From positions 25,746-89,745 of IMG/VR virus record IMGVR_UViG_3300031555_001586: a stretch of DNA of 64,000 nt; one strand, 5' to 3'. The notes beneath the pieces were generated by a model, which saw nothing but the letters and a program-made list of their open reading frames with translations, searched no databases and was not told where the DNA came from. Made by a program: the position numbers and the translations under genes. Origin of the DNA: a virus (lineage: Duplodnaviria > Caudoviricetes). Below, piece after piece: positions 496 to 43,747 of the stretch (the first letter of the stretch is position 1; each line of letters starts with the position of its first letter).

Positions 496-524
496 ATTAT
501 AACATAAATTTACTTATTTGTCAA
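496..524 (-). promoter_or_regulatory. Consensus sigma70/sigmaA promoter
   Basis: Reverse strand reads TTGACA-17 bp-TATAAT, with an A/T-rich upstream tract. Confidence 0.9.
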
Positions 525-761
525 GTATTTTTTATAAAATTCTGATAATTTTTCCGATAATTTTCCGAAGACATCTTGTATATTATACCAAAGGTATATC
601 TTTATATATTATACCAAAAGTATAAACTGTTTAATTACGTATATTATACCGTTGGTATATTCCATTTGTTGTTCTGGTATATTATACCGATTGTATAATA
701 TACCGACGGATACCAGAAAATATATTTGGTATATTATACGAAATTACGCCACACAAAAAAC

Positions 762-793
762 AAAAGAAAAAGAAGGTGGATTTCTCCACCTTC
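762..793 (-). terminator. Intrinsic terminator
   Basis: GAAGGTGGA-tttc-TCCACCTTC stem with a U-tract on the minus strand, just after the stop of 810-1064. Confidence 0.85.
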
Positions 794-809
794 CATATAA
801 CTTTATTTG

Positions 810-1064
810 TTATTCCTCTTCCTCCTCTTCCTCTTCTCTGTACATCAGTTCTTCAAAACTTCCATAGCCCAGCCAATCAGCAATAGTATCGTCCTCAAAC
901 CAAAAGAAATCATTAATTTCAACGTCCTCCATTCCATCAGGATAAATTTCTTCCAACATGTTTTCAATAGTGTCAATTTCATCTTCGGTCAAATACTTTA
1001 CAGTATCTTTTGCACCGCTCCAAAAATCAAAGTTTACAAGTCTTTCTTCCGTGTAGATTTTCAT
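810..1064 (-). CDS. 84-aa highly acidic early protein (possible DNA mimic)
   Basis: The RBS-supported start (AAGGAGG) is MKIYTEERLVNFDFWSGAKD at 1064, not the ORF-track start at 1133. Very D/E-rich with a poly-E C-terminus. Confidence 0.85.
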   Translation of the reverse strand: MKIYTEERLVNFDFWSGAKDTVKYLTEDEIDTIENMLEEIYPDGMEDVEINDFFWFEDDTIADWLGYGSFEELMYREEEEEEEE

Positions 1065-1123
1065 GGTATTTTCCTCCTTGTTGTTTTTATCTGTTGTTGT
1101 GTTCTGTTCTTCTTTACACCTAT

Positions 1124-1152
1124 ATAATAGCATATATTTTCTAAGTTGTCAA
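1124..1152 (-). promoter_or_regulatory. sigma70/sigmaA promoter
   Basis: Reverse strand reads TTGACA-17-TATTAT. Confidence 0.85.
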
Positions 1153-1576
1153 GTAGTTTTTATTTATTTTCCAAGAAATTTTCCAGTATTTTTATACATT
1201 TGTATATTATACGAATCATAAAATTTATCACTCGTTCGTTACTGGCCTCGTATATTATACCAGTGGTATATAATATAAATTTTCCGAGCGCAGCTTGCCA
1301 TACATCCGTATATTATACCAAATATTTTCCGCATGATGTTTCTATAATATTCCGTATAATATACCAATAATACATATATAATAATATTCCGTATAATATA
1401 CGATTATATATTTATTAATTATATATGTTATATACTGTTAGTATAATATACCGATTGGTATATTATACCTCTGGTATAAATAATAAATAAATCTTCCAAA
1501 CAACTCGTATATTATACCAAATTTCTATGCTGTTTATACATCGGTATAATATACGAATTTTCCAAGAAAAAATTCT

Positions 1577-1610
1577 AAAAGAAAAACAGTGGAGATAAAT
1601 TCTCCACTGT
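1577..1610 (-). terminator. Intrinsic terminator
   Basis: ACAGTGGAGA-taaat-TCTCCACTGT stem plus a U-tract on the minus strand. Confidence 0.85.
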
Positions 1611-1618
1611 CTGTTTAT

Positions 1619-1858
1619 TTAAAGTCCAGCCATTGCCAGAATAGCGTCCTCATAATAGCAAGCTCTTTCCGTCACTGCAACCTTTTTCATTCTAGGATAA
1701 AAATTTCCTCTCAACCAAAACAACTGCAATTCTTCTGTAGTGCTATAATTACCGCTCGCATAGTTTTTCCAAGCAAGGTCAAAAGCTTGTTTTGCTCTCT
1801 TCATTTTTCCAGCCTTAATATTGTCATTACAAGCGTTGATATAATCCATGGTAGACAT
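1619..1858 (-). CDS. 79-aa hypothetical early protein
   Basis: ORF track; GGAGG RBS upstream and a terminator downstream. Confidence 0.8.
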   Translation of the reverse strand: MSTMDYINACNDNIKAGKMKRAKQAFDLAWKNYASGNYSTTEELQLFWLRGNFYPRMKKVAVTERACYYEDAILAMAGL

Positions 1859-1873
1859 AAATTTTCCTCCGTA

Positions 1874-2050
1874 TTATTTCGCTAAAAACATGCTTTTGTC
1901 GATTTTTTCCAATGCAATCATCAAACCTGTAATTACTCCATTGTAATGGTCTTCGTGCATAGCTCCGCAATTCTCCAACATTTCTTCTTCGAACTCAATC
2001 TGCAATTTAATTGCAAGTTTCAAAACGTCCGCATATTCTTTAATACCCAT
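1874..2050 (-). CDS. 58-aa hypothetical early protein
   Basis: Manual translation: MGIKEYADVLKLAIKLQIEFEEEMLENCGAMHEDHYNGVITGLMIALEKIDKSMFLAK. GGAGG RBS. Confidence 0.8.
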   Translation of the reverse strand: MGIKEYADVLKLAIKLQIEFEEEMLENCGAMHEDHYNGVITGLMIALEKIDKSMFLAK

Positions 2051-2095
2051 AAAATTTCCTCCATGTTGTGTTGTTCTGTTGTTGTTTACACACTT

Positions 2096-2124
2096 ATAAT
2101 AGCATACTTTTTATCATTTGTCAA
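2096..2124 (-). promoter_or_regulatory. sigma70/sigmaA promoter
   Basis: Reverse strand reads TTGACA-17-TATTAT. Confidence 0.85.
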
Positions 2125-2359
2125 GTAGTAAATTAAAAATTCCAACAAAAAATTCCACAAAAATCCATTCAGTATTTTGTATATTATACCGTTTCCCATT
2201 TAGTTTTTATCTGTTGTTCCTCCGTATAATATACCAAGGTATAATATACTAAATTTTCTTCCTGCAAAACTCCGTATATTATACGTTTGCGTATAATATA
2301 CCAAGATATAAAACTCCGTATAATATACCAAACTTTCCATATTTAAAATCCAAAACAAA

Positions 2360-2390
2360 AAAAGAAAAAGAGGGAAGTTTTCTTCCCTCT
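2360..2390 (-). terminator. Intrinsic terminator
   Basis: AGAGGGAAG-tttt-CTTCCCTCT stem plus a U-tract on the minus strand. Confidence 0.85.
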
Positions 2391-2410
2391 AATCTTTATA
2401 TCTTTATCTG

Positions 2411-2716
2411 TTAGATATCGTAATAAACTTCTTCCTTGTAATACCCTTCCATTTCAACCGCTACTGTGAATCTATCCTGTACAGAGAAAGAATATCCAAA
2501 GTCCTTGTTGTATTTTCTGCTTGCTTCCGTTGCTACATTGTAATAAGCGTCTACCGCTTTTTCCGCATCATAAACGCCCTTCTTTGCTTTCTTCTTAAGG
2601 CTGTTAATAACCGCTGTGGTCATCCCTCTGTAAAGTTCTCCGTCATTGGTAGCATACAAGAAAAGCTCTCTGGATTCAGTGGTTTCCTTATAAATCATGT
2701 TTTTTGTACGTTTCAT
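2411..2716 (-). CDS. 101-aa hypothetical early protein
   Basis: The RBS (GGAGGG) supports the start MKRTKNMIYKETTESRELFLYATNDGELY at 2716. Confidence 0.85.
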   Translation of the reverse strand: MKRTKNMIYKETTESRELFLYATNDGELYRGMTTAVINSLKKKAKKGVYDAEKAVDAYYNVATEASRKYNKDFGYSFSVQDRFTVAVEMEGYYKEEVYYDI

Positions 2717-2769
2717 GGTGTATCCCTCCATAAGTTGTTGTTGTTTGGTGTTGTTCTTTATCTGTCTAT

Positions 2770-2798
2770 AATATATCATATAAAAAGTGGCTTGTCAA
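2770..2798 (-). promoter_or_regulatory. sigma70/sigmaA promoter (extended -10)
   Basis: Reverse strand reads TTGACA-17-TATATT with TG one base upstream of the -10. Confidence 0.8.
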
Positions 2799-3354
2799 GT
2801 AGTAAATTAAAAATTCCAAACAATTTTTTCCATGTTGAATGGCTTTGTATATTATACCAACTGCCAGCATACAAAGCCCGTATATTATACCGCTCTGGTA
2901 TAATATACGGATAACGTAGCAGCATCACTATTTGGTATATTATACCACGGGTATAATATACCTCTGGTATACCTGAAACGGTATAATATACGGCTTGCGT
3001 ATATTATACCGAACACCAAGAAAAGCGTATATTATACCAAGCTGTAAACAGCGCCGTATAATATACCAAAGACAGTACAAAACAAAACCGTATATTATAC
3101 CAATTGGTATAGCTCTGGACTCTTTCAGCCTCTCAACAATATCCCAAACAGTATTTTATACCGCTCTCAGGCTCTCAGTGGCTCTCTCTGCCATTTTAAT
3201 AGTCTCAGAGGGTTAACACAAGTGAAGAAAAAACGACGCTCTCAGAGGCTCACAGAGGCCCTCAGAACGTCGGTATAATATACGGAAATGATAGAAGTAT
3301 AGACGGCGGAAATCAGTGGTATAATATACGATTGCACACAATTAAAATAGGCAT

Positions 3355-3386
3355 AAAAAAAGAGGGGCATTTTAGCCCCTCTTTTT
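3355..3386. terminator. Bidirectional-looking intrinsic terminator
   Basis: AAAAAAAGAGGGGC-loop-GCCCCTCTTTTT. Confidence 0.85.
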
Positions 3387-3692
3387 CATAGTTTCTATAG
3401 TTTCTTTAATCTCACAATCTACAATTGCTTTTTCGTCGTAGTTTAACCAATAGTAATAGCCCTTAACAGGAGCGCATAAAAAATCACCTTTTTCGTTGCT
3501 AACTCCAAGACCAACCGCATAATGAGCTGGGAGATTAGTAAGCGCCCATAAATAAGCGGTGTCAATGTCAGGCGCATCAATTTCGATTTTGATACTATCG
3601 ACAATAGCGAAGTCGGGGTATTTACGAGCGGTGTCCCATGCAAAATAAGTAGGGACATCAGAAAAGCGATTAGCACGAATAAAATGTTTCAT
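3372..3692 (-). CDS. 106-aa hypothetical early protein
   Basis: ORF track; GAGAGG RBS. Confidence 0.75.
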   Translation of the reverse strand: MKHFIRANRFSDVPTYFAWDTARKYPDFAIVDSIKIEIDAPDIDTAYLWALTNLPAHYAVGLGVSNEKGDFLCAPVKGYYYWLNYDEKAIVDCEIKETIETMKKRG

Positions 3693-3713
3693 AGTAACTT
3701 TCCTCTCTTTAAT

Positions 3714-3738
3714 AAAAGGGGCTGATTCCTCAGCCCCT
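3714..3738 (-). terminator. Intrinsic terminator
   Basis: AGGGGCTGA-ttcc-TCAGCCCCT stem plus a U-tract on the minus strand. Confidence 0.8.
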
Positions 3739-3751
3739 ATAACTTTATCAC

Positions 3752-4453
3752 TTATAAAGCATAGTCGATAAATACGGCCTTGTAATATCCCTTGTTGTAA
3801 TCAAAGATTACGCCGGAGTTACCGCCGTTATGCATCGCATCACGCCAGCCCTGTTTTTTAGACATTCTAGCAAGTTTTTGAAGTCTTTCGTCGGCATCTT
3901 CACCGACATATCCATGTTCACGGTTCAAACGTTCGGCCTTGCGACATGCGCTATATGCATCGGATACATAAACGGCCTTTTGTGCAATAATTACCACATT
4001 GTTTTGCATTGTCTCAGAAGTTGCGGTAACCTTATCAGATTTGCTAGTAAAATACTTAAGAATCGGACAAAGTAAATCGGCGTATTCAGTTTCTGCGAAC
4101 TCTACCCAACAATTGATTTCGTCAACCAACTGATTACCAGTGCATTTGGCGTGTTCACCATGGACATTAGGTACATAACCGCCAGTTTTATGACGCTTAA
4201 TAACGATATACTTAAAAGCGTCACCCTCATGATTAACTAGGTGGCAAGTCTTAGTTGCGCCATGCTCACAGCTCCAATCATCACGGCTATACAGCTCGTT
4301 AATACGCCACTGGTCGTAAACCATGCCACGATTAGAGTTGGTATTGCAAGCAATCAACCATTCGATTAACGCACGATGGTTGTGCTTCTTTGCCTTTGCC
4401 ATAGCGGACTGAATAGCTTTAGTTTCAGGGTTCTTTCTAGTTGTCATTGTCAT
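3752..4453 (-). CDS. Putative protein-kinase-like (PKL fold) early protein
   Basis: Motifs appear in kinase order: HGATKT (Gly loop), YIVIK (beta3 Lys), NQLVDE (helix C Glu), IAQK (hinge), RDAMHNGGN (catalytic-loop-like), FIDY (DFG-like). AAGGAG RBS. Confidence 0.6.
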   Translation of the reverse strand: MTMTTRKNPETKAIQSAMAKAKKHNHRALIEWLIACNTNSNRGMVYDQWRINELYSRDDWSCEHGATKTCHLVNHEGDAFKYIVIKRHKTGGYVPNVHGEHAKCTGNQLVDEINCWVEFAETEYADLLCPILKYFTSKSDKVTATSETMQNNVVIIAQKAVYVSDAYSACRKAERLNREHGYVGEDADERLQKLARMSKKQGWRDAMHNGGNSGVIFDYNKGYYKAVFIDYAL

Positions 4454-4507
4454 GATAATGCATCTCCTTTTGTTGTTGCGGTATGTTATACCGTTGTTGT
4501 TGTCTAC

Positions 4508-4537
4508 ATTATAAGCTAGTCAAAAGCTACTTGTCAA
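4508..4537 (-). promoter_or_regulatory. sigma70/sigmaA promoter of the kinase-like gene
   Basis: Reverse strand reads TTGACA-18-TATAAT. Confidence 0.8.
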
Positions 4538-4701
4538 CTGATATGTTGCGAGTACAAAACGCCCACCGTTCTTGTGCAATACTGCTATATCCCTTGGAGC
4601 GAGAAACTGCCTATGACTTAGGGCGTTTAGACGGTATAGCCCGCCCTAATTAGGGCCAGACCGCTTGACTGATTGGATTTTGCTTTGCTTTGGATGTCTC
4701 A

Positions 4702-4729
4702 ATTATAGCTCATATTTTACACTTTTCAA
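4702..4729 (-). promoter_or_regulatory. Probable sigma70/sigmaA promoter with no ORF downstream
   Basis: Reverse strand reads TTGAAA-16-TATAAT. Confidence 0.55.
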
Positions 4730-4959
4730 GATGGGAAATTGCACAAAAAAAGAGCTTTAAAAAGCCCGTTTTGACTATGGTTTTTGTATAAAATACACAA
4801 ACGAAAATATGGGCTTCGGTATATTATACAAAACAGATACACTGTTTATAGCTCTGTTTTGTGCACATTGTATAATATACAAAAGGATATAGCATATTGC
4901 ACAAATAATATAGTTTTGTTTTGGCTATTTTGACGATAGACAAGGGGCGGTATAATATA

Positions 4960-5121
4960 CGAACGAACGTTCGATAAAATAGTGTGACATAATATCGAAC
5001 GAATGTTCTAAAAAATAGGGTGGTATAATATACAAAAATTTGTTCGAAAATATGGGCTGGTATGGATATAGAACAAATGTTCAATAATAGGGGTGGGGGG
5101 TGGTTTACAAACAAATGTTTG
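4960..5121. promoter_or_regulatory. Cluster of Firmicutes-type LexA (SOS/Cheo) boxes
   Basis: CGAAC-GAAC-GTTCG (4960-4973), CGAAC-GAAT-GTTCT (4996-5009) and AGAAC-AAAT-GTTCA (5070-5083). Degenerate copies at 5033-5046 and 5108-5121. Confidence 0.75.
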
Positions 5122-5194
5122 TTTTCTTTTTTAGGAAGTTGGATATGGGGTTCATCTATTCCTAAACGGTAAAAAAATTAACACGGTAAAAAAT

Positions 5195-5276
5195 AACACA
5201 GCTAAACACAGCTAAACATAGCAATAACACAATCAAACACAATTAAACACAATCAAGCACTAACTAACACAATATA
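5195..5276 (+). repeat. About 8 imperfect tandem 10-bp repeats (AACACAGCTA / AACACAATYA)
   Basis: Read directly; lies within a G-depleted C/A-rich tract (about 5160-5760). Confidence 0.8.
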
Positions 5277-5803
5277 ACAATCCCACCTCTCCAACCTTTC
5301 ATACTTCTCTCATCCCCAACCCCATCTCCATTCACATCCTCTCTCCTTTACCCCCTATATTCACGAAAACCCCACGAGCCAAAATAACGACCGTCTCAAC
5401 CACAAAATCACAAACAACAACCAAAACACAAACCAATAATAACCTAAAAATAATGCACTAAACACAACAACTATAATTACAATAATCCAACAACGAAGTC
5501 AACATACATATTACAAATCCATATACCACTACTCATACACTCCAAATATCATAAAAAATATCCCATTAGTATCTCTAATCATCGTTAACTACAAACAACC
5601 TAAAAACAAGACAGCTTAAATCAAAACAAATATCCAAAATTTAATCATAAATACCGTCAAAATTTCCCGTGACAAAGATAAATAATAAAATAAATACATT
5701 GTTTTAATGCCATTTATAAAATTATCAAAATAATAATCGTAAATCGTATGTAACATATACAAAAAATAAAATAAAAAATATTAAAAATTTTCTAAAAAAG
5801 TAC

Positions 5804-5832
5804 TTGACTTTTTAAAACAGATATGATATAAT
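5804..5832 (+). promoter_or_regulatory. sigma70/sigmaA promoter driving the rightward arm
   Basis: TTGACT-17-TATAAT with an extended TG and an A-rich UP-like tract. Confidence 0.85.
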
Positions 5833-6057
5833 TCCATCAACGGTTGAGTTAAGAAATTTATAACTAATAAATTGATATAAATATTAATTTATATAATTAT
5901 TAAAGTTATAGACTATCTTATATAAAACCAATATAATAATCATATAAGAATCTGTGCTACGAATAACGCATCTTTTAAAACGTAGCTCAGTAAGTGGCCG
6001 CAGGTCACTATAGTATTTTTATATATCTATATACTTATATGTATAGAACGGAAAAAA

Positions 6058-6129
6058 ACCGTACATTTTGTACGGTGGTCAAAGCCAAAAATACAATTAG
6101 CACCGTACATTTTGTACGGTGGTCAAAGC
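6058..6129. repeat. Two identical 28-bp direct repeats, each containing an 8-3-8 palindrome
   Basis: ACCGTACA-TTT-TGTACGGT-GGTCAAAGC at 6058-6085 and 6102-6129 (44-bp period). Confidence 0.95.
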
Positions 6130-6164
6130 AAATTTCAAACATTAAAGGTGGTGATAGAATCAGT

Positions 6165-7064
6165 GTGAATAACAGACATGAACAAAACCAATACAAAGTT
6201 ATTGATGGCAAATATGAATACAAAAAACTCCCCCTAGAAGAATCGCAATCAAAATATATATACATTCCTTCGTCTGTTATTACGGACACTGAACTAGATG
6301 TAAGAAGAGTTGGAGTATTTTCATATTTAAGAATCCATTGCGGATTAAACAATGTAATTAATTTTACTGTTCCAGATGTAGTTGAATGGTGTGGTGGAAA
6401 GCCGGATAGAAGAGCAAATGGCTCTAATGATAAAACTTTGTCTACTATGGATTTATTAAAGAATAGGGGTTATTTAACATATTTAACCGAAATTAGCAGA
6501 AGTTCCTTTATGAAATGTAGATTTAATACAGATTATTATTATGATAATTGTTCTAATGGATATGCCGCTATTTATTTAGACGAGTTAGGTAGTATAATGA
6601 GTTATCAAAAAGACAACTCAAAAGATAGTACTATAAACAATACAACTATACTTCTTGTGTTCGCTTTTCTCAGACTCAGGATAAAGCGCAGACCGAATGA
6701 GCTAAAACCAGAGGAAAGATATCCAGATAATATTAAAAGTCGGAGAGAAAGACTTCCAGAGGCTTACAGCGGCAATATTAATGATATGGCTAATGAAATT
6801 GGAATATCGTCAAAGACTTTTTCAAAAATAATTGATATCCTTGAGTATGAGTTATGTTTAATTGTAACCGATAGAGCTTATAGGATTAAGAATGAAAATA
6901 AAGAATTTAGAACACTGCCAACTATTTTTGCGAATGCTTATAAACGTGAAGACAGATATCTTTTGGATACTGGTAGCGATTATAGCAGGACAGAAATAGA
7001 ACTAAAGGCACGGCATTATCAAGATTATAAAATTGATAAAAGAAAAAGGAAAAGAAAGGAGTGA
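6165..7064 (+). CDS. 299-aa DNA-binding protein with probable tandem winged-HTH domains (regulator or Rep-like)
   Basis: The GTG start follows AAAGGTGGTGA; the track start at 5994 lacks an RBS. wHTH-like segments FSYLRIHC...TVPDVVEWCG and INDMANEIGISSKTFSKIIDIL; basic C-terminus. Confidence 0.6.
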   Translation: MNNRHEQNQYKVIDGKYEYKKLPLEESQSKYIYIPSSVITDTELDVRRVGVFSYLRIHCGLNNVINFTVPDVVEWCGGKPDRRANGSNDKTLSTMDLLKNRGYLTYLTEISRSSFMKCRFNTDYYYDNCSNGYAAIYLDELGSIMSYQKDNSKDSTINNTTILLVFAFLRLRIKRRPNELKPEERYPDNIKSRRERLPEAYSGNINDMANEIGISSKTFSKIIDILEYELCLIVTDRAYRIKNENKEFRTLPTIFANAYKREDRYLLDTGSDYSRTEIELKARHYQDYKIDKRKRKRKE

Positions 7065-25240: not shown

Positions 25241-25630
25241 ATGGCGGCAAAAAATAATGCTACTTGCAGTATCTGTGGAAGACCGTATCATATGTGTGCT
25301 TCTTGTAAAGATTCAATGCAAGTGAATCCTTGGAAGATGTTTACCGATACATCCGAACATTACAAAGTGTTTCAGGTTGTTAAAGGTTTCAATACTGGTG
25401 TATATACCAAGGATGAGGCTAAAATTAAATTCAAAAATATTGACTTGAGTGATAAGGATTCTTTTCGACCACATATCAAACAAATTATTGATGATATTTT
25501 GTTTGAGCCTGTTGTCGAAAAGGTTGTTACTCCTAAAAAGAGAAATAAAGTTAATAAAATTGAAGCAGAAGCAATCGACGATGTTAAAATTAACGAGATT
25601 GAAGTTGTCGAAGTTGTTGAAGCAGAGTAA
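25241..25630 (+). CDS. 129-aa protein with an N-terminal CxxC...CxxC
   Basis: CSICGRPYHMCASC; GGAGG RBS. Confidence 0.75.
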   Translation: MAAKNNATCSICGRPYHMCASCKDSMQVNPWKMFTDTSEHYKVFQVVKGFNTGVYTKDEAKIKFKNIDLSDKDSFRPHIKQIIDDILFEPVVEKVVTPKKRNKVNKIEAEAIDDVKINEIEVVEVVEAE

Positions 25631-34297: not shown

Positions 34298-37200
34298 AAT
34301 ACGGTTGTGCAAGACCCCGATACTGTAGGTACTGCCTTCAAGACCATAAGCATGAGAATTCGTGGTGCAAAAACTGAACTCGAAGAAGCAGGTCTTGAAA
34401 CAGATGGTATGGTAGATTCCACTGCCAAATTACGTGAAGAAATCCTCGCTCTTTCTGGCGTGGACATCATGGAAAATGATAATCAATTTAAATCAACATA
34501 TGATATTTTAGATGAACTTGCTGCTAAGTGGGAACATCTTAGCGACATCCAACAGGCCACTGTTACAGAACTTATAGCAGGAAAGCGTCAAGGCAACATT
34601 ATTTCCAGCTTAATGACTAACTTTGATACCGCTCGTGAAGCACTCGAAGTTTCAATGAACTCTGAAGGCTCAGCCATGGAAGAACATGCTAAGTGGAGCG
34701 AGTCTTTAGAGGCCAAACTTTTAAAACTTAAATCTACATGGCAGTCTTTATCTCAGTCCTTTATGAGTTCTGGATTCTTAAAGGGCGGTGTTAGTGCTCT
34801 TACTGGCTTTGTAGATGTAATAGATACTTTAATAAGTAAATTAGGTGTAATACCTACTCTTTTGACAGGCTTATCCGCATTTCAATCGTTTAAAGGCAAT
34901 GGTTTCTTTAAAGTAATTGAAGATGAGGCTGCTGCAAGCGGCAAAAGAATAGGGACAATATTCAGCACATCTCTTTCTAGCGTAACTAAGCAGTTTAACA
35001 ATATGGGCATTGGAACTAATGCAGAGTTTAGGAATTTATTAGATTCAGACATCAATATTTTAAATAATTGGATGGATGAATTAAGCAAAGGCCCTCCTGT
35101 TGCCGATGCCTTTGATAATATATTTAAAAATGCCAGTAATAGCGCTAAAGAGTTTGCACAAAGCGGCAAACTTGCCTCAGAGGGCGTTGAAGGATTTGTT
35201 AAACAGCAGAAGACTGCTCAAGTCGCTATAGTAGCGCAGAATAATAATCTTTCTTCTGCAAAAGCCATTATGAAAGAATATAACAGTGGTTGTAAAAATA
35301 CCGCAATGTCTCAAGAGGATTTTATATCTGCTGTTAGTTCTGGTAATACTGGTCTTTCCAAATATCTATCTGGATTAAATGGCGCAAAAGCATCAACTAG
35401 TGGATATATTGCATCACTAGTTGGTGCTAAAATTGCTACGATTGCTTTGGAAGCCGCTACAATGGCATTAAATGCTGCTCTTACGATGGGCATTTCTCTT
35501 GCAATTTCTGCCGCAATTAAAGCATTCGACGAATGGTATGTCTCTGCCAGTGAATTGGCAGAAAAAGTAGACGAGGTTACAACTAAATACCAAGAGCAAC
35601 ATGGCGAGTTAACAAAGCTCAAAGGCGATTATGACACTACAAATGAAGATTCCATGATTTCCAAATATGGGGAACTTTCTAAGGGTGTTGATGCTTTTGG
35701 TAAAAACATTTCCTTAACTGCTGATGAGTATGCTGAATATCAGAGTATTGTTGAAACAATAGCTGGTCAAATTCCATCTCTTGTTTCTGGATATGATTCT
35801 CAAGGCAATGCTATTCTTAGCTGTGCTGGTAATGTACAACAACTTACTGCTGAATATGAAAAATTAATTAAAGCTCAAAATGATGAAATCTTAATAGGCT
35901 CATCTGGTGATATTAATAAGGATTTTCAAAATGCAGTAAAAGATGCCGAACATGATACTGCTGGTTTCTTTGGTTGGAATTGGACTAAGGAACTTGGTTT
36001 GGGCGATTCTAAATTATCAACTCAGTCGGCGGAAATTTATGAAAATATTTTAAATAGTGCAGATGCAGTCAAAGAGTTTAATAAAGCAATCAATACTGAG
36101 GGAAATGATTTAGAATCATTCTTAGATAATTCAGATGTGGATGCCATGTCTGAATTATTAGAATCTGCCGGTTTTAAAAAAGAAGGAAGTTTTTGGAGCG
36201 GAAAAGAATCAAATGCGGAGCACATTAGAAGAGCGCTTGAGGAAGATGCGTCTAAGGTAAAAAATATTATAGACCAGTATTATGCAGGTTTGGAAGAAGA
36301 AGTAGAAGGTAAAAAATCTCAAGCCCAAGCTGCTTTAAGTAATGCTTTTGACCTTAGTGATTCTCAATATTATGGAATGAGCGATACTTTGAAGAATATT
36401 GCTCAACAAACTGCCAGTGGATTTGATTTTGAATTCTTTGCAGACCTTGAAGAACAAGGGATTAGCGTTGAAAAATATGTAAACAATATGCTTGACCAAC
36501 TTCAAGCTCTTAGTGACAATCAAGAAACTAAACTTGAGGCCGCTTTTAATCTTAGAACGCAATTTAACGATGATGAAATTTCTTACGGTGAATATGTTAG
36601 TGGCCTTGAAGATGCCGCTAGTATGGTTGATAAATTAAATTTACAACCAGAAGTTAAAAGTCAAATTAAATTAAGTCTTGGTTTAAATGAGGAAGGTTTA
36701 GTTGAAGAATATGAAAATCTCGCATCTCGTCTATCTGAAACAGAAACTGCTACTGGTAATGTTATAGGTTTTAGTAGTAAAGAAGTTGCAAAAGATTTTC
36801 TTGATGGGTTATCTTCTGATGAAGCTTCTGTTACATGGGATATCGTTACTGACCCGAACTTTGTCATACCAGAAGGTGCTACTGACGAAGTAAAGCAAGA
36901 GATACTTCAGCAAGCTATCGACCTTGAAATGATGCTTCAGGGTTTAAACTTTGACTTAAATCTTGAAGTTGAGGCCGCTGGTATCGAAGCCCTTAATACT
37001 GCTTTGTCAGAATCTGTAACAGCTACTGGTTTGTCTTCTGAATCTATTTCTGCACTGAGGTCTCGGTATGCTGGACTTGAGAATCAAGGTTTTGACCTCT
37101 CTTCTATGTTTGAAGAAACTTCTCATGGCATACGCATTAACAGACAAGAGTTTAAGAGATTTGAAAATGAACTTGCTTCTCAAAAAATAGCCGAAGTTGA

Positions 37201-40200
37201 TGGCGAATTAGAGAGAATGAAAAAGACCTATGACGAGCTTGGTGAAGCTATGGACGGTGCAAGTCCTGAAAGAAAAGCCGAACTATTTAGTCAGAGGAAT
37301 TTACTTGCTCAAAGAATTGCCGAAGCTGGTGAATTAGCTGCTCAGTATGACGGTCTAACATCTTCTTATAATCAATGGTTAACCGCTGAATCTGCTGGCA
37401 ATGAACGAGATATGTATGAGAATGTCATTAGTGGTTTTGAGACCGTTAAAGACGAACTGTCTCGTGGTTGGGCTGATGATAGTACTATTGAGTTTCTTGA
37501 ATTAGTTACTGGACGTACAGATTTAGCTAGTAAGTCTGGCAAGGAACTAAAGGAAGTCTATGATGGTTTAGATAAGACTATTAAAAATACTAAATACAGT
37601 GTTAAAGATTTCTTTACTGTTGATGATGAGGGCAATTCTACTAGTAAAGGCGTTTATAATTTCTTAGATGCTGTTGGTCAATTAGAAGAAGAGGCTTTTG
37701 GTGGATTAGATGTTGTCAAGAGAGATAAGGGTGGCAATGTCATAGGTTTCGACTTCGAAATTGCTGGCGGAGATGAAGCTATTGCAGAAGCTCTTGGTAT
37801 TAGTGAAGAACTTGTTCAGATTATGGTTCGTGCTGCTGACGATGCTGGTTTTGTCGTTAATATGGAGGGTACTTATACTCAATATGCAGACATGGCATCT
37901 GAAGCAGAAAATGCATCTAATAAATTAAAAGAGTTAAGTCAAGTAAATGATGATTTAGGTAAAAGGTTAAAGGCAACTGGTAGCGACTTTGAATTTGATT
38001 TTAATTCTACCAATGTAAAAACAGTTAAGAGCGAACTTGAAGAAGCTAATAAAATATTAGATACTTTCAAGAATAAAGACGGCACTATTAATATGGAAGC
38101 CGATGGCGCTGTTGAAGCTATGCAGATAGTTTCCACTCTTCAGGCAAGGCTTGATAGTTTAGAAAGCGAAAAGTATGGTATTGGTCTTACGGTTGAAGAC
38201 AAAGAATTTGAAGAGCCGTTGGAGCAACTTCAAAACTATGGACATACCGTAGCCGAATTGAATCAGCTTGAAATCAATCCGAAAGCTAATGCAGAAGAAA
38301 TAAAAGTATTAGAAGGCGAACTTGATAATATAGCAGAATATTTTGCCAATCTCGACAAAGATACAAAGATTAAACTTGGTTTCGAGGCAAGTGATGACGT
38401 TGAAGATGTTAAGAAAAAGATTGAATCTGGTGAAGTAAAGATTCCTACTACTCTTGATATCCAGACGAATATGGATAAAAATCTTTCAGATTTGAGAGAT
38501 TTGGCTCTGCTTAATTCTGGTCTTCTATCTCCTGAGCAAGAAGAAACTATTAAGATTAGATTAGGTATCGAAGTTGAAAGCGATGTTAAAACAGAAGGTG
38601 TTAAAGAAGACATTAATAATGCTGTTGACAATGCCGTTGGCAACAATAGTAGTACTAAAACAGAAATCAAGACAAATGTAAATGTTAAGGCTGGCGAAGT
38701 TGATGCTTCTGATGTCGATGATAATGTCGAGAAAACTCTTAATGGTCGTGGTAGAAGTGGAGTTGCAAAGGGCGCAAATGGTCGTAGACAATATTCAATC
38801 GGCACTGTAGAACCAAAAGCTGATAACGTTGACACTTCTAATTTAGAAAAAGAAACAAAAGAAAAAACCGAAGAAGCTGTTGGTGATGGTGAAACAATCA
38901 AGGCCAAAACCAACGTTGAGATAAATGCCGAAACTACTCTTTCTGAACTTACCGACATCTTAGAAGATGTTGAGAAGATTGAAGATAAAAGTGCAACTAT
39001 AGATGTTGAGGCTAATCTTGATGGTAATATTGGCAGTGCAGAAGATATCAAGAATCTAATCGAGTTTGCTGAAGGTGCTAAGGCATTGGAAGGTGTGGAA
39101 TCTTCTGATATTTCTGTTGATGTAGATTTTGACAGCAATCTTGGCGAAGCTGTAGGACTTGACCAATTAGCTAAATTTGCAGAGGGCGCTAAGGCGCTTG
39201 ACGGTGTTGAAGATGCAGATGTTTCTGTCAAAGTGGAACTGGAATGTGAGTTTAACAATGGAAACTTTGATTCTTTAGCTAAATTTGCAGATAGCGCAAC
39301 AAAACTTCAAGGCGTTGAATCTTCTGATGTTTCTGTTGAAGTTGAACTAGATGGAAACCTTAGTGAATGGAAAGGCAATCTTGAAGATTTAGGTAAATTT
39401 GCTGATAATGCTTCTAAGTTAAAGGGTGTTGAAGACGCAAATGTTTCCGTTAGGGCAACTTTAGTAACAGAATTTAATGAATCGAATTTAGATGATTTAG
39501 CTAAATTTGTTGATAATGCGGCTAAATTACAAGGTGTCAAGGATTCCGATGTTTCTATCAATACCAATCTTGAGGGAAACTTGGGCGAAAATGCTAATAT
39601 AGGAAATCTTGAGAAGTTTGTTAATGCGGCAACTAATCTACAAGGTGTTAAAGGAAAAGAAGTTAAACTTACAACTAATCTTTTTGGTAATTTAGTCGGA
39701 AATCCCAACCTTTATAACCTAGAAGCGTTCGCAGAAGGAGCTAATGCTTTACAAGATGCCAAGAGCAAAGAAGTAGAAATTAAGGCTAATCTTTATGGTA
39801 ATCTAGTTGGTAATCCTAATTTGTATAGTCTTGACGCATTTGCTGAGGGTGCTAACGCACTGCAAGATGCAGAAAGTAAAGATGTTAAATTAACAACCAA
39901 TCTTTTTGGCAATCTGATTGGCAATGGCAATCTTTATAGTTTGGAGTCGTTCGCAGAAGGAGCTAACGAACTTCAAGGCGTTGAAAGTAAAGATATAAAA
40001 ATCAATGCTAACCTTTACGGAAATCTAATTGGAAACAATAATCTTTATAGTTTGGAAGCATTTGCAGATGGCGCAAATGAATTGCAAGATGTAGAGAGTA
40101 AAGATATCAAGATTACAACTAATTTATATGGTAATTTAGTTGGAAACCCCAATCTTTACAGTCTTGAAACTTTCGCTGATAGTGCAGATGAATTGCAAGA

Positions 40201-43200
40201 TGTTGAATCTAAAGACATTAGTATTACTACTAATCTTTATGGAAACTTGGTTGGTAATCCTAATTTATATAATCTTGAAGCGTTTGCTGACGGGGCTAGT
40301 GAGTTACAAGGCGTAGAATCTAAAAATGTTAGAATTGATGCTAATCTTTACGGAAATTTGATTGGTAATGGTAACTTATACAGCTTAGAAGCTTTTGCAA
40401 ATGGAGCCGAAGATTTACAAAATGTAAATAGCAAAAATGTTAGAATTGATGCGAATTTATATGGCAATCTAATTGGTAATGGAAATCTTAGTAATTTAGC
40501 AACCTTTGCCGCAAGAGCAAAAGAACTACAAGGTATAGGAGACGTTAAAGTTAGTGTCACTGCAAATGTTGATTCTGGCGCAATAAACAATGCAATCAAT
40601 GTATTAAGCAATGTTGCCAATAGTGGATTGTTTAAAGATTATAATGCAACTGTTACAGCAATTGTTAATTATAATAAGGGTACTCAAACTCCACCAGATG
40701 ATAAGACTGCAAAAGTAAATTATGAACTTGGTTCTCAGGATGCTCCTAAAAATAAAACTGCAAAAGTTAATTATGCTTTAGGTAGTCAAGCTGCACCAGA
40801 AAGCAAAACTGTTTATGTTAATTATGTTGGCATTGGCCCTGCTGCTGGTACAGCGCATACTGAAGGTTCTGCATTTGCAGATGGTACTGCTAGTTCTTCT
40901 GGTCGTGCTTTTGCTCGTGGTGACTGGGGTATTAAGGGCAATGGCGTTGCTCTGGGCGGCGAGTTAGGGAGAGAGCTAGTCGTTAGAGACGGAAAGTTCT
41001 TTACTATAGGCGATAAAGGCGCAGAGTTTTTCCGTTATAAAAAGAATGATATAGTGTTTAACGCAGCGCAAACAGAATCGCTCTTTAAATATGGCGGTAT
41101 TAAAGGTGCTAATCCAAGAGGTAAGATGCTTGCTTCTGGTACTGCTTTTGCTTCTGGTTCTGCATTTTCTAGTGGTTCTGGCGGTGGATTCTGGTCGAAT
41201 TCTTCTTCTGGCAAAAATTCTTCTACCGGAAAATCTTACAACTCCTCCTCTTCTTCTGGCGACGCAGACAAATTCGAAGAAACAATTGATTGGATTGAAA
41301 TGGCTATTGACCGTATTGAACGTTCAATAGACCAGCTTGATACAAAGGCAAATAGTGTTTATCGTTCTTGGTCTGAGAGAAATAAAAGCCTTACAGCTGA
41401 ACTTTCTAGTATAGGCACGGAAATTGAGTTGCAGGAGCGAGCATATGATAGATATATGTCTGCTGCATATGGTACTGGTCTTAGCTATTATTGGCAAGCA
41501 AAAGTACAAAATGGTCAAATTGATATTTCAACTATTACAGATGAAGCTCTAGCCAAACAGATAGAGGATTATCGTACATATTATGAAGCAGCTCTTGATT
41601 GCAAGGATGCAATTCTTGAATTGCAAGAGACCGAATCTGAACTCTATGCACAACAATTCGAAAATATTCAAGCAAGGTATGACGGTATTATTCAAGGATA
41701 TGAACATACTGAAAAAATGCTGAATGAGTATATTTCTCAGGCTGAAGAACAGGGTTACATAATAAGTAAAAAGTATTATGAGGCTTTAATTTCTAACGAA
41801 AAATCCAACATTACCGAATTAAGGAAAGAACAAGCTAATTTGATTGCCGCTCGTGATGAAGCTGTTGAAATCGGTGTTATTACTAAAGGTTCAGAAGCTT
41901 GGATGGAGCAATGCGCAGCAATTGATGAAGTTACACAAGCAATCGAAGAATCACAAACTGCTTTATTAGAATTTGATAATGCTATGCGTGAAATTGATTG
42001 GGGTATTTTCGACCTAATTCAAGAACGTATTTCTGGTGTTACTGAAGAAGCGGATTTCTTGATTGAACTAATGAGTAATAAGAAGCTCTTTGACGACAAT
42101 GGCAAGTTAACAAGTCAAGGTTTCGCCACTATGGGATTACATGCGCAGAATTATAATTCTTATATGTACCAAAGTGACGAATATGCCGCTGAGGTTGAAA
42201 AACTTGACGGTCAAATAGCAAGCGACCCATATGACCAAGAGTTAATCAACCGCAGAAACGAACTGCTTGAATTACAGCGTGAGTCTATCCTTGCCGCAGA
42301 AGACGAAAAGAATGCCATTACCGATTTAATATCTGATGGTATTGAAGCAGAATTAGACGCATTGCAAGAACTCATTGATAAAAAGAATGAGCAGTTAGAA
42401 AGTGAAAGAGATTTGTATGAGTACTCTAAAAAGGTAAAAGAGCAGACTTCTGAGATTGCCTCTCTTGAGAAACAGCTTAGCGCATATTCTGGCGACGATA
42501 GCGAAGAGGCTAAGCAGAAAATACAACAAATTAAAGTTGATTTAGAAACTGCTCGTGATAATTTAGAGGAAACTGAATACGAAAAACTTATTGGCGATTC
42601 TGAAATTTTATTAAACTCGCTTTATGATGAGTACGAACTTATACTCAACCAACGTCTTGATAATGTAGACGCACTTCTTGAACAAGTAATCGAAAGTATA
42701 AATATTGCTACAAGTGCAGATGGCAACATAGCAGCCGCTCTTGGTACTGAGGGTGCGATAGCAATTGCTGTAAGCAATAACGCTACTTCTATTAAGAGTA
42801 CATTGGAATCCGAGACAAATAAAGTGGGAATTGCTCTGTCAAATGCAATGAACAATATTTGGAACACAGGAGAAGGCAACGCTAAATCCGTGTTAACAAT
42901 GTATGGCGAAGATTTTAAATCAAAATCTACAACCATAATTACAACATTAAATGGTATAAAGTCTAGTGTTAATAGTATGGTTTCTTCTTTGAATAAGGAA
43001 GCAGCGAAAAAAGTTTCGGCAAATAAAACTACTACTTCTGCCAAGAAGAATCCTACTACAACTTCTTCTAGCAAAACTACTAGCACAACTAAAAAGCCTA
43101 CCGGAGATGGTGTGCCTAAGATTGGCGATAAGGTTACGTATGTAAGCGGTCAATATTATTATGATTCTGAGGGCAAGAAACCTCTTGGTTCTCAAAAAAG

Positions 43201-43747
43201 AGGCGAACAAGTTTATATTACTAATATTAATACAAGGGATTGGGCTACTCATGGTTATCATATTAGTAGAGGAAATAAGCTTGGCAAGGGTGACTTGGGT
43301 TGGTTAAAATTAAGTCAGCTTAGTGGTTATGCAACTGGCAAACAAGATATCTCAGAGGATGAGGTTGCTTGGACGCAAGAAGGCAGGAAGCGAGAGTTTA
43401 TTGTTCGTCCTTCTGATGGGGCTATTCTTACTCCTGTTGCTAAGGGCGATAGTATTCTTACTTCTACTGCAAGCAATAATATTTGGAATATGGCTAACTC
43501 TCCTGCTGAGTTTATTAAAGAAAACTTAAAGCTGGATACCTCTAATGTTCCTAGCGCCCCAAATGTTAGCAATGTATATACTCAGAACTTTGAGAATGTC
43601 ACATTCAGTATGCCTAATGTCCATGGATATAGTGATTTGCTGACAGAGATGCAGAAAGACCCCAAATTTGAAAAACTGATATTATCAATGACTATTGATA
43701 GAATTGCTGGTAAAAGCAGTCTCGCAAAAGGTAAGTCTATTAGATAA
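34298..43747 (+). CDS. Tape measure protein, exon 2 (3149 aa; spliced product about 4290 aa)
   Basis: Continues the TMP core (QDPDTVGTAFKTISMRIRG...IAGKRQGN). Long helical regions, 37-aa repeats and a C-terminal SH3b-like segment (KIGDKVTYVSG...GWLKLSQLSGY). Confidence 0.9.
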   Translation, partial: NTVVQDPDTVGTAFKTISMRIRGAKTELEEAGLETDGMVDSTAKLREEILALSGVDIMENDNQFKSTYDILDELAAKWEHLSDIQQATVTELIAGKRQGNIISSLMTNFDTAREALEVSMNSEGSAMEEHAKWSESLEAKLLKLKSTWQSLSQSFMSSGFLKGGVSALTGFVDVIDTLISKLGVIPTLLTGLSAFQSFKGNGFFKVIEDEAAASGKRIGTIFSTSLSSVTKQFNNMGIGTNAEFRNLLDSDINILNNWMDELSKGPPVADAFDNIFKNASNSAKEFAQSGKLASEGVEGFVKQQKTAQVAIVAQNNNLSSAKAIMKEYNSGCKNTAMSQEDFISAVSSGNTGLSKYLSGLNGAKASTSGYIASLVGAKIATIALEAATMALNAALTMGISLAISAAIKAFDEWYVSASELAEKVDEVTTKYQEQHGELTKLKGDYDTTNEDSMISKYGELSKGVDAFGKNISLTADEYAEYQSIVETIAGQIPSLVSGYDSQGNAILSCAGNVQQLTAEYEKLIKAQNDEILIGSSGDINKDFQNAVKDAEHDTAGFFGWNWTKELGLGDSKLSTQSAEIYENILNSADAVKEFNKAINTEGNDLESFLDNSDVDAMSELLESAGFKKEGSFWSGKESNAEHIRRALEEDASKVKNIIDQYYAGLEEEVEGKKSQAQAALSNAFDLSDSQYYGMSDTLKNIAQQTASGFDFEFFADLEEQGISVEKYVNNMLDQLQALSDNQETKLEAAFNLRTQFNDDEISYGEYVSGLEDAASMVDKLNLQPEVKSQIKLSLGLNEEGLVEEYENLASRLSETETATGNVIGFSSKEVAKDFLDGLSSDEASVTWDIVTDPNFVIPEGATDEVKQEILQQAIDLEMMLQGLNFDLNLEVEAAGIEALNTALSESVTATGLSSESISALRSRYAGLENQGFDLSSMFEETSHGIRINRQEFKRFENELASQKIAEVDGELERMKKTYDELGEAMDGASPERKAELFSQRNLLAQRIAEAGELAAQYDGLTSSYNQWLTAESAGNERDMYENVISGFETVKDELSRGWADDSTIEFLELVTGRTDLASKSGKELKEVYDGLDKTIKNTKYSVKDFFTVDDEGNSTSKGVYNFLDAVGQLEEEAFGGLDVVKRDKGGNVIGFDFEIAGGDEAIAEALGISEELVQIMVRAADDAGFVVNMEGTYTQYADMASEAENASNKLKELSQVNDDLGKRLKATGSDFEFDFNSTNVKTVKSELEEANKILDTFKNKDGTINMEADGAVEAMQIVSTLQARLDSLESEKYGIGLTVEDKEFEEPLEQLQNYGHTVAELNQLEINPKANAEEIKVLEGELDNIAEYFANLDKDTKIKLGFEASDDVEDVKKKIESGEVKIPTTLDIQTNMDKNLSDLRDLALLNSGLLSPEQEETIKIRLGIEVESDVKTEGVKEDINNAVDNAVGNNSSTKTEIKTNVNVKAGEVDASDVDDNVEKTLNGRGRSGVAKGANGRRQYSIGTVEPKADNVDTSNLEKETKEKTEEAVGDGETIKAKTNVEINAETTLSELTDILEDVEKIEDKSATIDVEANLDGNIGSAEDIKNLIEFAEGAKALEGVESSDISVDVDFDSNLGEAVGLDQLAKFAEGAKALDGVEDADVSVKVELECEFNNGNFDSLAKFADSATKLQGVESSDVSVEVELDGNLSEWKGNLEDLGKFADNASKLKGVEDANVSVRATLVTEFNESNLDDLAKFVDNAAKLQGVKDSDVSINTNLEGNLGENANIGNLEKFVNAATNLQGVKGKEVKLTTNLFGNLVGNPNLYNLEAFAEGANALQDAKSKEVEIKANLYGNLVGNPNLYSLDAFAEGANALQDAESKDVKLTTNLFGNLIGNGNLYSLESFAEGANELQGVESKDIKINANLYGNLIGNNNLYSLEAFADGANELQDVESKDIKITTNLYGNLVGNPNLYSLETFADSADELQDVESKDISITTNLYGNLVGNPNLYNLEAFADGASELQGVESKNVRIDANLYGNLIGNGNLYSLEAFANGAEDLQNVNSKNVRIDANLYGNLIGNGNLSNLATFAARAKELQGIGDVKVSVTANVDSGAINNAINVLSNVANSGLFKDYNATVTAIVNYNKGTQTPPDDKTAKVNYELGSQDAPKNKTAKVNYALGSQAAPESKTVYVNYVGIGPAAGTAHTEGSAFADGTASSSGRAFARGDWGIKGNGVALGGELGRELVVRDGKFFTIGDKGAEFFRYKKNDIVFNAAQTESLFKYGGIKGANPRGKMLASGTAFASGSAFSSGSGGGFWSNSSSGKNSSTGKSYNSSSSSGDADKFEETIDWIEMAIDRIERSIDQLDTKANSVYRSWSERNKSLTAELSSIGTEIELQERAYDRYMSAAYGTGLSYYWQAKVQNGQIDISTITDEALAKQIEDYRTYYEAALDCKDAILELQETESELYAQQFENIQARYDGIIQGYEHTEKMLNEYISQAEEQGYIISKKYYEALISNEKSNITELRKEQANLIAARDEAVEIGVITKGSEAWMEQCAAIDEVTQAIEESQTALLEFDNAMREIDWGIFDLIQERISGVTEEADFLIELMSNKKLFDDNGKLTSQGFATMGLHAQNYNSYMYQSDEYAAEVEKLDGQIASDPYDQELINRRNELLELQRESILAAEDEKNAITDLISDGIEAELDALQELIDKKNEQLESERDLYEYSKKVKEQTSEIASLEKQLSAYSGDDSEEAKQKIQQIKVDLETARDNLEETEYEKLIGDSEILLNSLYDEYELILNQRLDNVDALLEQVIESINIATSADGNIAAALGTEGAIAIAVSNNATSIKSTLESETNKVGIALSNAMNNIWNTGEGNAKSVLTMYGEDFKSKSTTIITTLNGIKSSVNSMVSSLNKEAAKKVSANKTTTSAKKNPTTTSSSKTTSTTKKPTGDGVPKIGDKVTYVSGQYYYDSEGKKPLGSQKRGEQVYITNINTRDWATHGYHISRGNKLGKGDLGWLKLSQLSGYATGKQDISEDEVAWTQEGRKREFIVRPSDGAILTPVAKGDSILTSTASNNIWNMANSPAEFIKENLKLDTSNVPSAPNVSNVYTQNFENVTFSMPNVHGYSDLLTEMQKDPKFEKLILSMTIDRIAGKSSLAKGKSIR
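39011..40561 (+). repeat. 14 tandem repeats of about 37 aa (111 bp) in the TMP
   Basis: Unit (T/A)NLYGNLVGNPNLYSLEAFAEGANELQDVESKDIKIT; the last 8 copies (39674-40561) are highly similar. Confidence 0.9.

Follow-up and report, generated by a model that had tools for sequence, protein, structure and literature searches.

What is the role of the 11-bp palindrome GTATAWTATAC (W = A or T) that is packed in many copies into the intergenic spacers of a phage early region? The palindrome was analysed in a stretch of 64,000 nucleotides (the window), which corresponds to bases 25746–89745 of an 89,745-bp viral contig (IMG/VR record IMGVR_UViG_3300031555_001586) that is rated 65% complete. The source is a large siphovirus-type gut phage of a low-GC Firmicute. 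The contig codes for terminase, portal, and tape measure, and the portal is about 28% identical to the portals of SPbeta-like, Lactococcus 949-group, and Brevibacillus Sundance phages. Everything left of window position 4540 is a minus-strand early arm of small genes, the products of which include an ArdC-like protein, a metallophosphatase, a GIY-YIG endonuclease, and DUF3846 proteins. Judging from the sequence patterns described below, we lean towards the reading that the palindromes are predicted operators through which a dyad-symmetric protein would control the entire early arm, most likely by shutting it off.

The motif was searched as the exact 11-mer and the chance level was taken from dinucleotide shuffles. 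The window contains 36 exact copies that are all located at 578–5033, and the shuffles gave a mean of 0.09 copies and never more than 1. An earlier note, made from the letters of the window, had counted about 37 copies and had estimated less than one chance copy per 64 kb. The count is thus lower by one, and the location, the non-chance density, and the estimate stand. No copy had been noticed in the other 59 kb, which has no exact copy, although two one-mismatch copies are located there (14412 and 56682). The six clusters described in the window are each located between the terminator of a minus-strand unit and the -35 of the next unit, and the one-mismatch copy that had been placed in the leader of a kinase gene is real (GTATGTTATAC, 4481–4491). 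The scan of the whole phage that the note had proposed shows that the array extends past the window. The contig contains 80 exact copies in 18 clusters (contig 9607–30778), which are located throughout in the intergenic DNA of the leftward early arm. Only 10 one-mismatch variants were identified in the contig and 8 of them are within the same region as the exact copies. This sharpness, 80 exact copies against 10 one-mismatch copies, is unusual for a family of binding sites.

The motif is conserved together with the early arm. The first gene of this arm encodes P0001, a minimal protein-kinase-fold protein, and 349 homologues of P0001 are present in public data. The contigs fetched for their P0001 homologues (63–73% identity) carry 52 (L308), 38 (L309), 48 (L310), 74 (L311), 49 (L324), 40 (L325), and 34 (L326) copies, where the copy numbers for L-numbered loci count the stretches that were fetched. 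Other phage fragments with arrays were identified by scanning metagenome contigs for two sites within 34 nt. These fragments carry 51 (L186), 14 (L078), 11 (L144), 9 (L080), 8 (L074), and 6 (L174) copies, and a scan of genome contigs added one more (L223, 6 copies). The DNA of the contigs found by scanning aligns with this phage only in a few short stretches, and the single gene they share with it is P0001. Apart from the motif, the DNA of the contigs fetched for P0001 does not align with this phage either. Among the motif-bearing contigs that extend to this end of the arm, P0001 is also the only gene common to all. Every fetched contig with a P0001 homologue exhibits the identical 11-mer in the same arrangement and with the same spacing, with 6–74 copies per contig, 34–74 in those longer than 7 kb, and up to 57–78 in the extended loci. 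The conservation in related phages that the earlier note had asked about is therefore found. That note had also named relatives that keep the early genes and lose the arrays as a refutation. Instead, the relatives with the early genes keep the arrays.

The ten relatives that were found through the portal (61–82% portal identity; G001–G010) carry zero copies of the motif, and they include two complete genomes and one that is 91% complete. Their early regions are not homologous to that of this phage, and P0001 was not found in the eight of these ten records in which it was sought. No over-represented palindrome that could form an analogous array was identified in G002–G006 or G008. The early promoters of G002 (L059 10419, 12712, and 13988) have an inverted repeat, TATGTAG ... 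CTACATA, that brackets the -35 TTGACAA, which looks like a different operator solution for the same promoter type. The Rep-like, HU-like, 92-amino-acid, and 68-amino-acid proteins of the right arm are equally similar in the motif-less G005, G006, and G008. The right-arm genes are thus not co-inherited with the motif, and it follows that the early arm is transferred together with its arrays as one module. Among cultured phages, none was found with similar DNA or a P0001 homologue. A pair scan of IMG/VR with the record of this phage masked gave scattered matches of 2–5 copies only, and a full-text literature search for the 11-mer gave only coincidental oligonucleotides, such as one in the lmrR operator.

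The symmetry of the motif was described from 400 sites of eight phages, each oriented along early transcription. More than 400 sites from divergent phages exhibit no variation at the 10 specified positions. The centre base exhibits no strand bias (A in 208 and T in 192 sites, p = 0.45), and the flanks are symmetric at ±2 and ±3 (TTn before the site and nAA after it). Some polarity is exhibited by the ±1 flank, where the upstream side is G in 57% of sites. A lone TATAC half-site is located 9–11 bp upstream of 42 of the 400 sites, and there are almost none at the mirrored location. In 58 of 88 clusters, the copy on the terminator side has T at its centre.

The spacing of the sites follows the helical repeat. 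The earlier note had described the spacing as irregular, and it was found to be quantised with a period of about 10.4 bp. Start-to-start distances pile up at 16–18, 24–29, 34–38, and 47–48 bp, and neighbour distances avoid 19–22 bp and are scarce around 31–32 and 40–43 bp. The phasing is R = 0.54 in this phage (n = 60 spacings), and it recurs in two independent sets, seven short metagenome contigs (R = 0.55, n = 79) and five long contigs (R = 0.52, n = 199). The pooled best period is 10.35 bp (R = 0.53, n = 322), and random gaps never gave a value above 0.23. Tandem duplication was considered as the source of this spacing and was ruled out because linkers of equal length are unrelated in sequence (identity 0.31–0.34 against 0.27 when shuffled). 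The phase is about 0.55 turn and neighbouring sites therefore lie on opposite faces of the helix. The facing half-sites of adjacent palindromes, and the lone upstream half-site, are whole turns apart. The proposal of the earlier note that the sites serve a dyad-symmetric, probably dimeric binder is well supported by the unbiased centre base, the symmetric flanks, the 10 invariant positions, and this helical-repeat spacing.

The likeness of the 11-mer to a host-optimal -10 element is striking, and the sites could alternatively be isolated -10 elements for the host sigmaA RNA polymerase that act as a decoy, a landing pad, or tandem weak promoters. Such elements would concentrate polymerase on the first-entering DNA and feed the early promoters. 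Both strands of the site read TATAWT and keep T-12, A-11, and T-7. The 11-mer can serve as a -10, as it is the -10 plus discriminator of promoters with TTGACA and a 17-nt spacer in the genomes G131, G158, and G212, and the working -10 of the kinase gene in L308 and L311. However, the centre base of the phage sites is unbiased, whereas the Clostridia promoters that contain the 11-mer always read TATAAT in the forward direction. TG is more frequent before the site when read along transcription (34%) than on the other strand (19%), but it is not associated with the centre base (Fisher p = 0.29), and the TGG-TATAAT form that had been called frequent is a minority. A -35 with at most one mismatch is located 16–18 bp upstream of only 5 (forward) and 3 (reverse) of the 400 sites, and the -35 matches are no better than at shifted control positions. 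The sites are as close as 15–18 bp, a distance that is far exceeded by the footprint of the RNA polymerase holoenzyme. The half-turn spacing rule also speaks against this reading, and the invariant outer G and C are unexplained by -10 recognition. Given the unbiased centre, the unlinked TG, the absence of a -35, and the tight spacing, we rank a decoy or landing pad below a small symmetric binder and consider it unlikely. The idea of polymerase recruitment in the earlier note is weakened to that extent, and the part that stands is that the 11-mer works as a -10.

The position of the arrays within the early units is fixed. Along the direction of transcription, a unit consists of the previous terminator, often a lone TATAC half-site, 2–14 palindromes, about 45 nt of A/T-rich UP-like DNA that ends in AAAAAACTAC, and the promoter, with the core TTGACAA, a 17-nt spacer, and TGnTATAAT. 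We identified 120 near-consensus sigmaA promoters (at most one mismatch to TTGACA-N16-18-TATAAT) in seven early arms (this contig, L308, L373, L374, L375, L325, and L186), and the conserved AAAAAACTAC immediately precedes TTGACAA at the early promoters of these arms. The centre of the promoter-proximal site is at -52 to -151, with modes near -86, -97, and -108. G is avoided at -13 of the real promoters in this phage only; across phages, G is present in 16 of 79, and this avoidance was rejected as a general feature. CodY-box-like sequences (at most three mismatches) were identified upstream of 33 of the 120 promoters compared to 2.8 in mononucleotide shuffles, and they may be mere A/T tracts of the UP element.

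This upstream range, and the UP-like A-tract between the array and the -35, would suit an activator, of the host or injected by the phage, that binds the sites and contacts the alpha subunits of the polymerase. Fis at rRNA promoters and phi29 p4 at promoter A3 are parallels. The proximal site has a weak phase with respect to the start site (R = 0.25, n = 79). The promoters, however, already match the consensus in the -35, the spacer, the extended -10, and the UP-like tract. Up to 14 sites on alternating faces are not what face-specific activation needs, and the sites that overlap the kinase -10 or leader point to repression. An activator is hardly probable in our judgement. By the same promoter features (UP-like A-tract, TTGACA, 17-nt spacer, and TGnTATAAT), the promoters are already maximal, and we favour an early arm that is turned off for this reason.

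The kinase promoter is the only place where the motif touches a promoter core. The exact site is the -10 of the kinase gene in L308 and L311, and in L325 it is located in the leader beside the ribosome-binding site. This promoter-overlapping site looks like a classical operator, which also favours negative control. P0001 itself is read as a minimal host-takeover kinase, not as a DNA binder. Its AlphaFold model is confident (pLDDT 91), and its best Foldseek matches are almost all protein kinases, although these matches are weak (E about 0.03, TM about 0.35). The residues K86, E112, D205, N209/N212, and D230, which are the kinase catalytic set, are invariant in the alignment of P0001. P0001 was rejected as the binder on the grounds of this fold and these residues, and a match to RHH_1 inside it is sub-threshold (E 0.04) and was taken as chance. 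The other recurrent families of the early arm are a metallophosphatase, two DUF3846-fold proteins, and a 61-amino-acid protein. The conserved core of the arm is formed by the minimal kinase, the calcineurin-like phosphatase, and the two DUF3846-fold proteins (contig 14315–15016 and 13941–14297; window 3752–4453), and it may be a phosphorylation-based host-takeover set.

The candidates for the binder were also compared between phages with and without the motif. The earlier note had proposed a wHTH protein at 6165–7064, here the Rep-like protein (356 amino acids, 5994–7064), and the HU-like protein (10481–10936), and neither is retained since both have similar identity in the motif-less relatives. 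The same phyletic pattern rules out the right-arm candidates in general (Rep-like, 92-amino-acid acidic, YonO-like, HU-like, and 68-amino-acid proteins). The motif was also rejected as a promoter of the YonO-like polymerase since complete genomes with a 59–68% identical polymerase of this type carry no copy. The binder would be encoded in the early arm or by the host.

The predicted mechanism is as follows. The palindromes would be high-affinity sites, 2–14 in each spacer between terminator and promoter, that are bound by a probably dimeric protein. Successive sites are (n + 0.55) turns apart, and the bound dimers would alternate faces and coat the spacer. This coat would turn the whole early arm, about 18 units in this phage, off together. 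The site over the kinase -10 or leader would repress the kinase gene directly. The purpose may be to shut off host-takeover genes in the course of infection, or to keep the arm silent during a carrier or lysogenic state. A carrier or plasmid-prophage state, which would depend on such silencing, is hinted at by LexA-type boxes, a parS site, and a Xer-like recombinase.

Several observations weigh against operators of this kind. Outside the kinase gene, the sites are 52–151 bp upstream of the start and not over the promoter, a placement that is uncommon among repressors and that would fit an activator or an architectural role. In addition, the 11-mer equals a perfect -10 plus discriminator of the kind used by a host-type RNA polymerase. 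The kinase, phosphatase, 61-amino-acid, and two DUF3846-fold families resemble no known DNA binder, and searches of the core early-arm proteins against Pfam, PDB, and Atlas gave no DNA-binding annotation. No Xre-type helix-turn-helix or ParB domain was found in the 89.7-kb contig, its only ribbon-helix-helix match is at chance level, and no ribbon-helix-helix or Fur-family gene was detected in it. Multi-operator silencing, one of the possibilities in the earlier note, is nevertheless favoured here, with the qualification that the array is upstream of most promoters and not over them. We infer both that a protein binds the sites and that its effect is negative.

An architectural role was weighed as well, in which the arrays would load a protein that, as at parS, matS, or Noc sites, condenses, bridges, tethers, or segregates the early arm, or that ratchets the DNA inwards during entry, with the control of transcription as a secondary effect. 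The copies per spacer climb from 2–3 to 5–14 towards the divergent junction, and alternating faces would suit the bridging of two duplexes. A perfect host-type parS (TGTTTCACGTGAAACA, contig 25324–25339, which is -421 to -406 in window coordinates) is located inside the gene-free spacer with 14 copies, and a second parS is present in the equivalent region of L311, at about 9780. However, the clusters all have the same position within their transcription units, with one copy overlapping the promoter of the kinase gene. The only true parS has a sequence other than that of the motif, and the contig (65% complete) yielded neither a ParB-family gene nor a match to the ParB_N domain. The parS-like loading array that the earlier note had listed is left with the parS inside the spacer in its favour, and an architectural role is rather doubtful.

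The preferred reading, an operator array, was compared to known systems. The nearest one is that of SPbeta, which has been reported to use MrpR (YopR) with the repeated element SPBRE at about 10 sites (PMC10516654). This phage is distantly related to SPbeta as it encodes YonO-, YonG-, and YonJ-like genes. Both phages have one conserved short element that is repeated in the promoter regions between early genes, and joint silencing has been proposed for SPbeta; the comparison rests on layout and placement. The element of this phage is present in 80 copies in 18 early intergenic spacers. SPbeta has about 10 single sites of 15 bp, whereas this phage has 80 exact palindromes of 11 bp in phased arrays of 2–14. 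MrpR has a catalytically dead tyrosine-recombinase fold, whereas the only integrase-family protein of this phage (contig 6952–7737, Xer-like) keeps the catalytic Arg of HxLR and the Tyr, and it is 55% identical in the motif-less G002–G004.

The stoperators of mycobacteriophage L5 are reportedly tens of near-identical short sites through which one protein, gp71, silences the genome. They resemble the arrays in that many short sites are distributed over many intergenic spaces, and in the silencing by one protein that is predicted for this phage. However, the stoperators are asymmetric, orientation-dependent, and located inside units where they block elongation, whereas the sites of this phage are exact palindromes (centre A 208 to T 192) that are located between a terminator and the next promoter and not inside transcribed operons. 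The pSM19035 omega protein on its heptads, and Fur and DtxR, are small dimers on arrays of short repeats at promoters with successive dimers rotated round the helix, and Fur and DtxR dimers occupy opposite faces. Arrays near promoters are shared with this phage, for which dimers on alternating faces are predicted, but the repeats of those systems abut or overlap (6–7 bp offsets) and the phage has separate 11-bp palindromes with variable gaps in a half-turn register. The rrnB P1 promoter of E. coli combines several upstream Fis sites, an UP element, and a very strong promoter, and the early units of this phage have a similar arrangement of putative protein sites upstream, A/T-rich UP element, and very strong promoter. 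Fis sites are degenerate, in phase, and activating, whereas those of the phage are without variation and in anti-phase, with one of them lying over a promoter core. Replication iterons do not fit either, as the 18 clusters are spread over 21 kb and Rep-like homologues are present in the motif-less relatives. None of the known systems that were compared has all four features of the phage element, which are a palindrome that is exact and of odd length, arrays with as many as 14 sites, half-turn phasing, and a location outside the units.

The candidate host genomes were also scanned, as the earlier note had suggested. Of the 401 Clostridia genomes, most have copy numbers close to the control level, and a few outliers are accounted for by a repeat family of 119 nt or by the -10s of promoters. 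The Clostridia metagenome-assembled genome that holds L223 has only 2 copies outside the phage-like contig. In G083 and G115 (loci L327–L340), the repeat is dispersed and sometimes tandem, about 119 nt long, and present in 6–7 copies per genome. Two 11-mers form the arms of its first hairpin (GTATAATATACGC-N3-4-GCGTATATTATAC), and a second conserved hairpin then follows. In G131, G158, and G212 (loci L341–L370), GTATAATATAC is present in 19–26 copies compared to 1–4 in the controls, and several copies are located before tRNA genes. A 28-nt match in G131 was rejected as it is not within a repeat array, and contig C215 of G212 is a binned phage fragment. The pair matches in bacterial genome contigs are mostly unrelated hairpins in Patescibacteria, Johnsonella, or Dehalococcoidia. 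Many long perfect hairpins, GAC-GTATAATATAC-TATA-GTATATTATAC-GTC with variable outer arms, were identified in Patescibacteria (e.g. L188–L192 and L219–L221), and they are a separate repeat family that is unrelated to the phage arrays.

A further reading would connect the phage sites to such host promoters. The 11-mer would copy the optimal -10 plus discriminator of the strongest promoters of the host, and the 40–80 phage copies would be a sponge or timer for a -10-binding factor that recognises the duplex by its palindromic symmetry and shuts host tRNA-type promoters. The factor would be held on the entering early arm and released or relocated as the copy number changes. We regard this sponge as a long shot. 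If true, it would couple host shut-off, early-gene shut-off, and the switch to a YonO-type polymerase, and the co-inherited pair of minimal kinase and phosphatase would tune the factor.

The features of the window that are relevant to the arrays are listed in Table 1. The two rightmost sites (4950 and 5023) interleave with the LexA-type boxes of the divergent control region.

Table 1. Positions of the arrays, promoters, terminators, and associated genes in the window.
Feature	Window position	Strand	Description
Array, 5 exact sites	578–739	none	Upstream of promoter 496–524
Array, 9 exact sites	1202–1554	none	Upstream of promoter 1124–1152
Array, 6 exact sites	2179–2328	none	Upstream of promoter 2096–2124
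Array, 12 exact sites	2847–3329		10 sites at 2847–3100 and 2 at 3273–3329; upstream of promoter 2770–2798
Four exact sites	4819–5033	none	Divergent control region
One-mismatch site GTATGTTATAC	4481–4491	none	Kinase leader, directly downstream of the kinase -10
Near-consensus sigmaA early promoter	496–524	-	TTGACA, 17-nt spacer, TGtTATAAT; A-tract and CTAC before it
Near-consensus sigmaA early promoter	1124–1152	-	
Near-consensus sigmaA early promoter	2096–2124	-	
Near-consensus sigmaA early promoter	2770–2798	-	
SigmaA promoter of the kinase operon	4508–4537	-	TTGACA, 18-nt spacer, TATAAT
Intrinsic terminator of the upstream early unit	756–793	-	Read from sequence; array begins a few bases downstream
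Intrinsic terminator bounding the next array	2355–2390	-	Read from sequence
P0001	3752–4453	-	233-aa minimal protein-kinase-fold protein, first early-arm gene
Three LexA-type (Cheo) boxes	4960–5083		GAAC-N4-GTTC; divergent control region
971-aa protein (phrog_8308)	7383–10298	+	YonO-type single-chain two-barrel RNA polymerase

The plus strand of the noncoding stretch of about 800 bp at 5160–5990 is composed, with few exceptions, of A and C and contains short repeats such as AACACAGCTAAAC. The Rep-like gene lies downstream of this stretch, which may represent an origin or a genome end. The terminal repeats of the related records are assembly overlaps of 46–60 bp only. The 971-amino-acid protein is 77% identical to a 968-amino-acid protein in the same position of L310, and that position is occupied in L311, L324, and L325 by Pfam RdRP-family proteins, with YonG-, YonJ-, and HU-like genes as neighbours. 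It is assigned as a YonO-type polymerase because of this identity and these proteins. The polymerases of L311, L324, and L325 are just 22–25% identical to that of this phage, and thus YonO-type polymerases of two lineages accompany one type of early arm in different phages. It has been reported that the YonO of SPbeta transcribes late genes and that its promoter is still undefined (PMC5467207). Two giant open reading frames of 3146 and at least 2125 amino acids are located on the plus strand of the structural region (34307–43747 and 57626–64000).

The findings in this work indicate that these uncultured SPbeta-like gut phages run about 18–20 host-type promoters of maximal strength in addition to a YonO-type RNA polymerase. 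Their early arms, together with the cis-elements, are exchanged as modules between phages that have nearly identical structural genes. The arrays are an unusually clean and testable cis-element with a clear phyletic partner, the kinase-led early arm. The binder, once found, would be either a phage regulatory protein of a new kind or a host protein in a new function, and it would account for the alternating-face geometry. A compact and orthogonal multi-operator switch for Firmicutes is a possible product.

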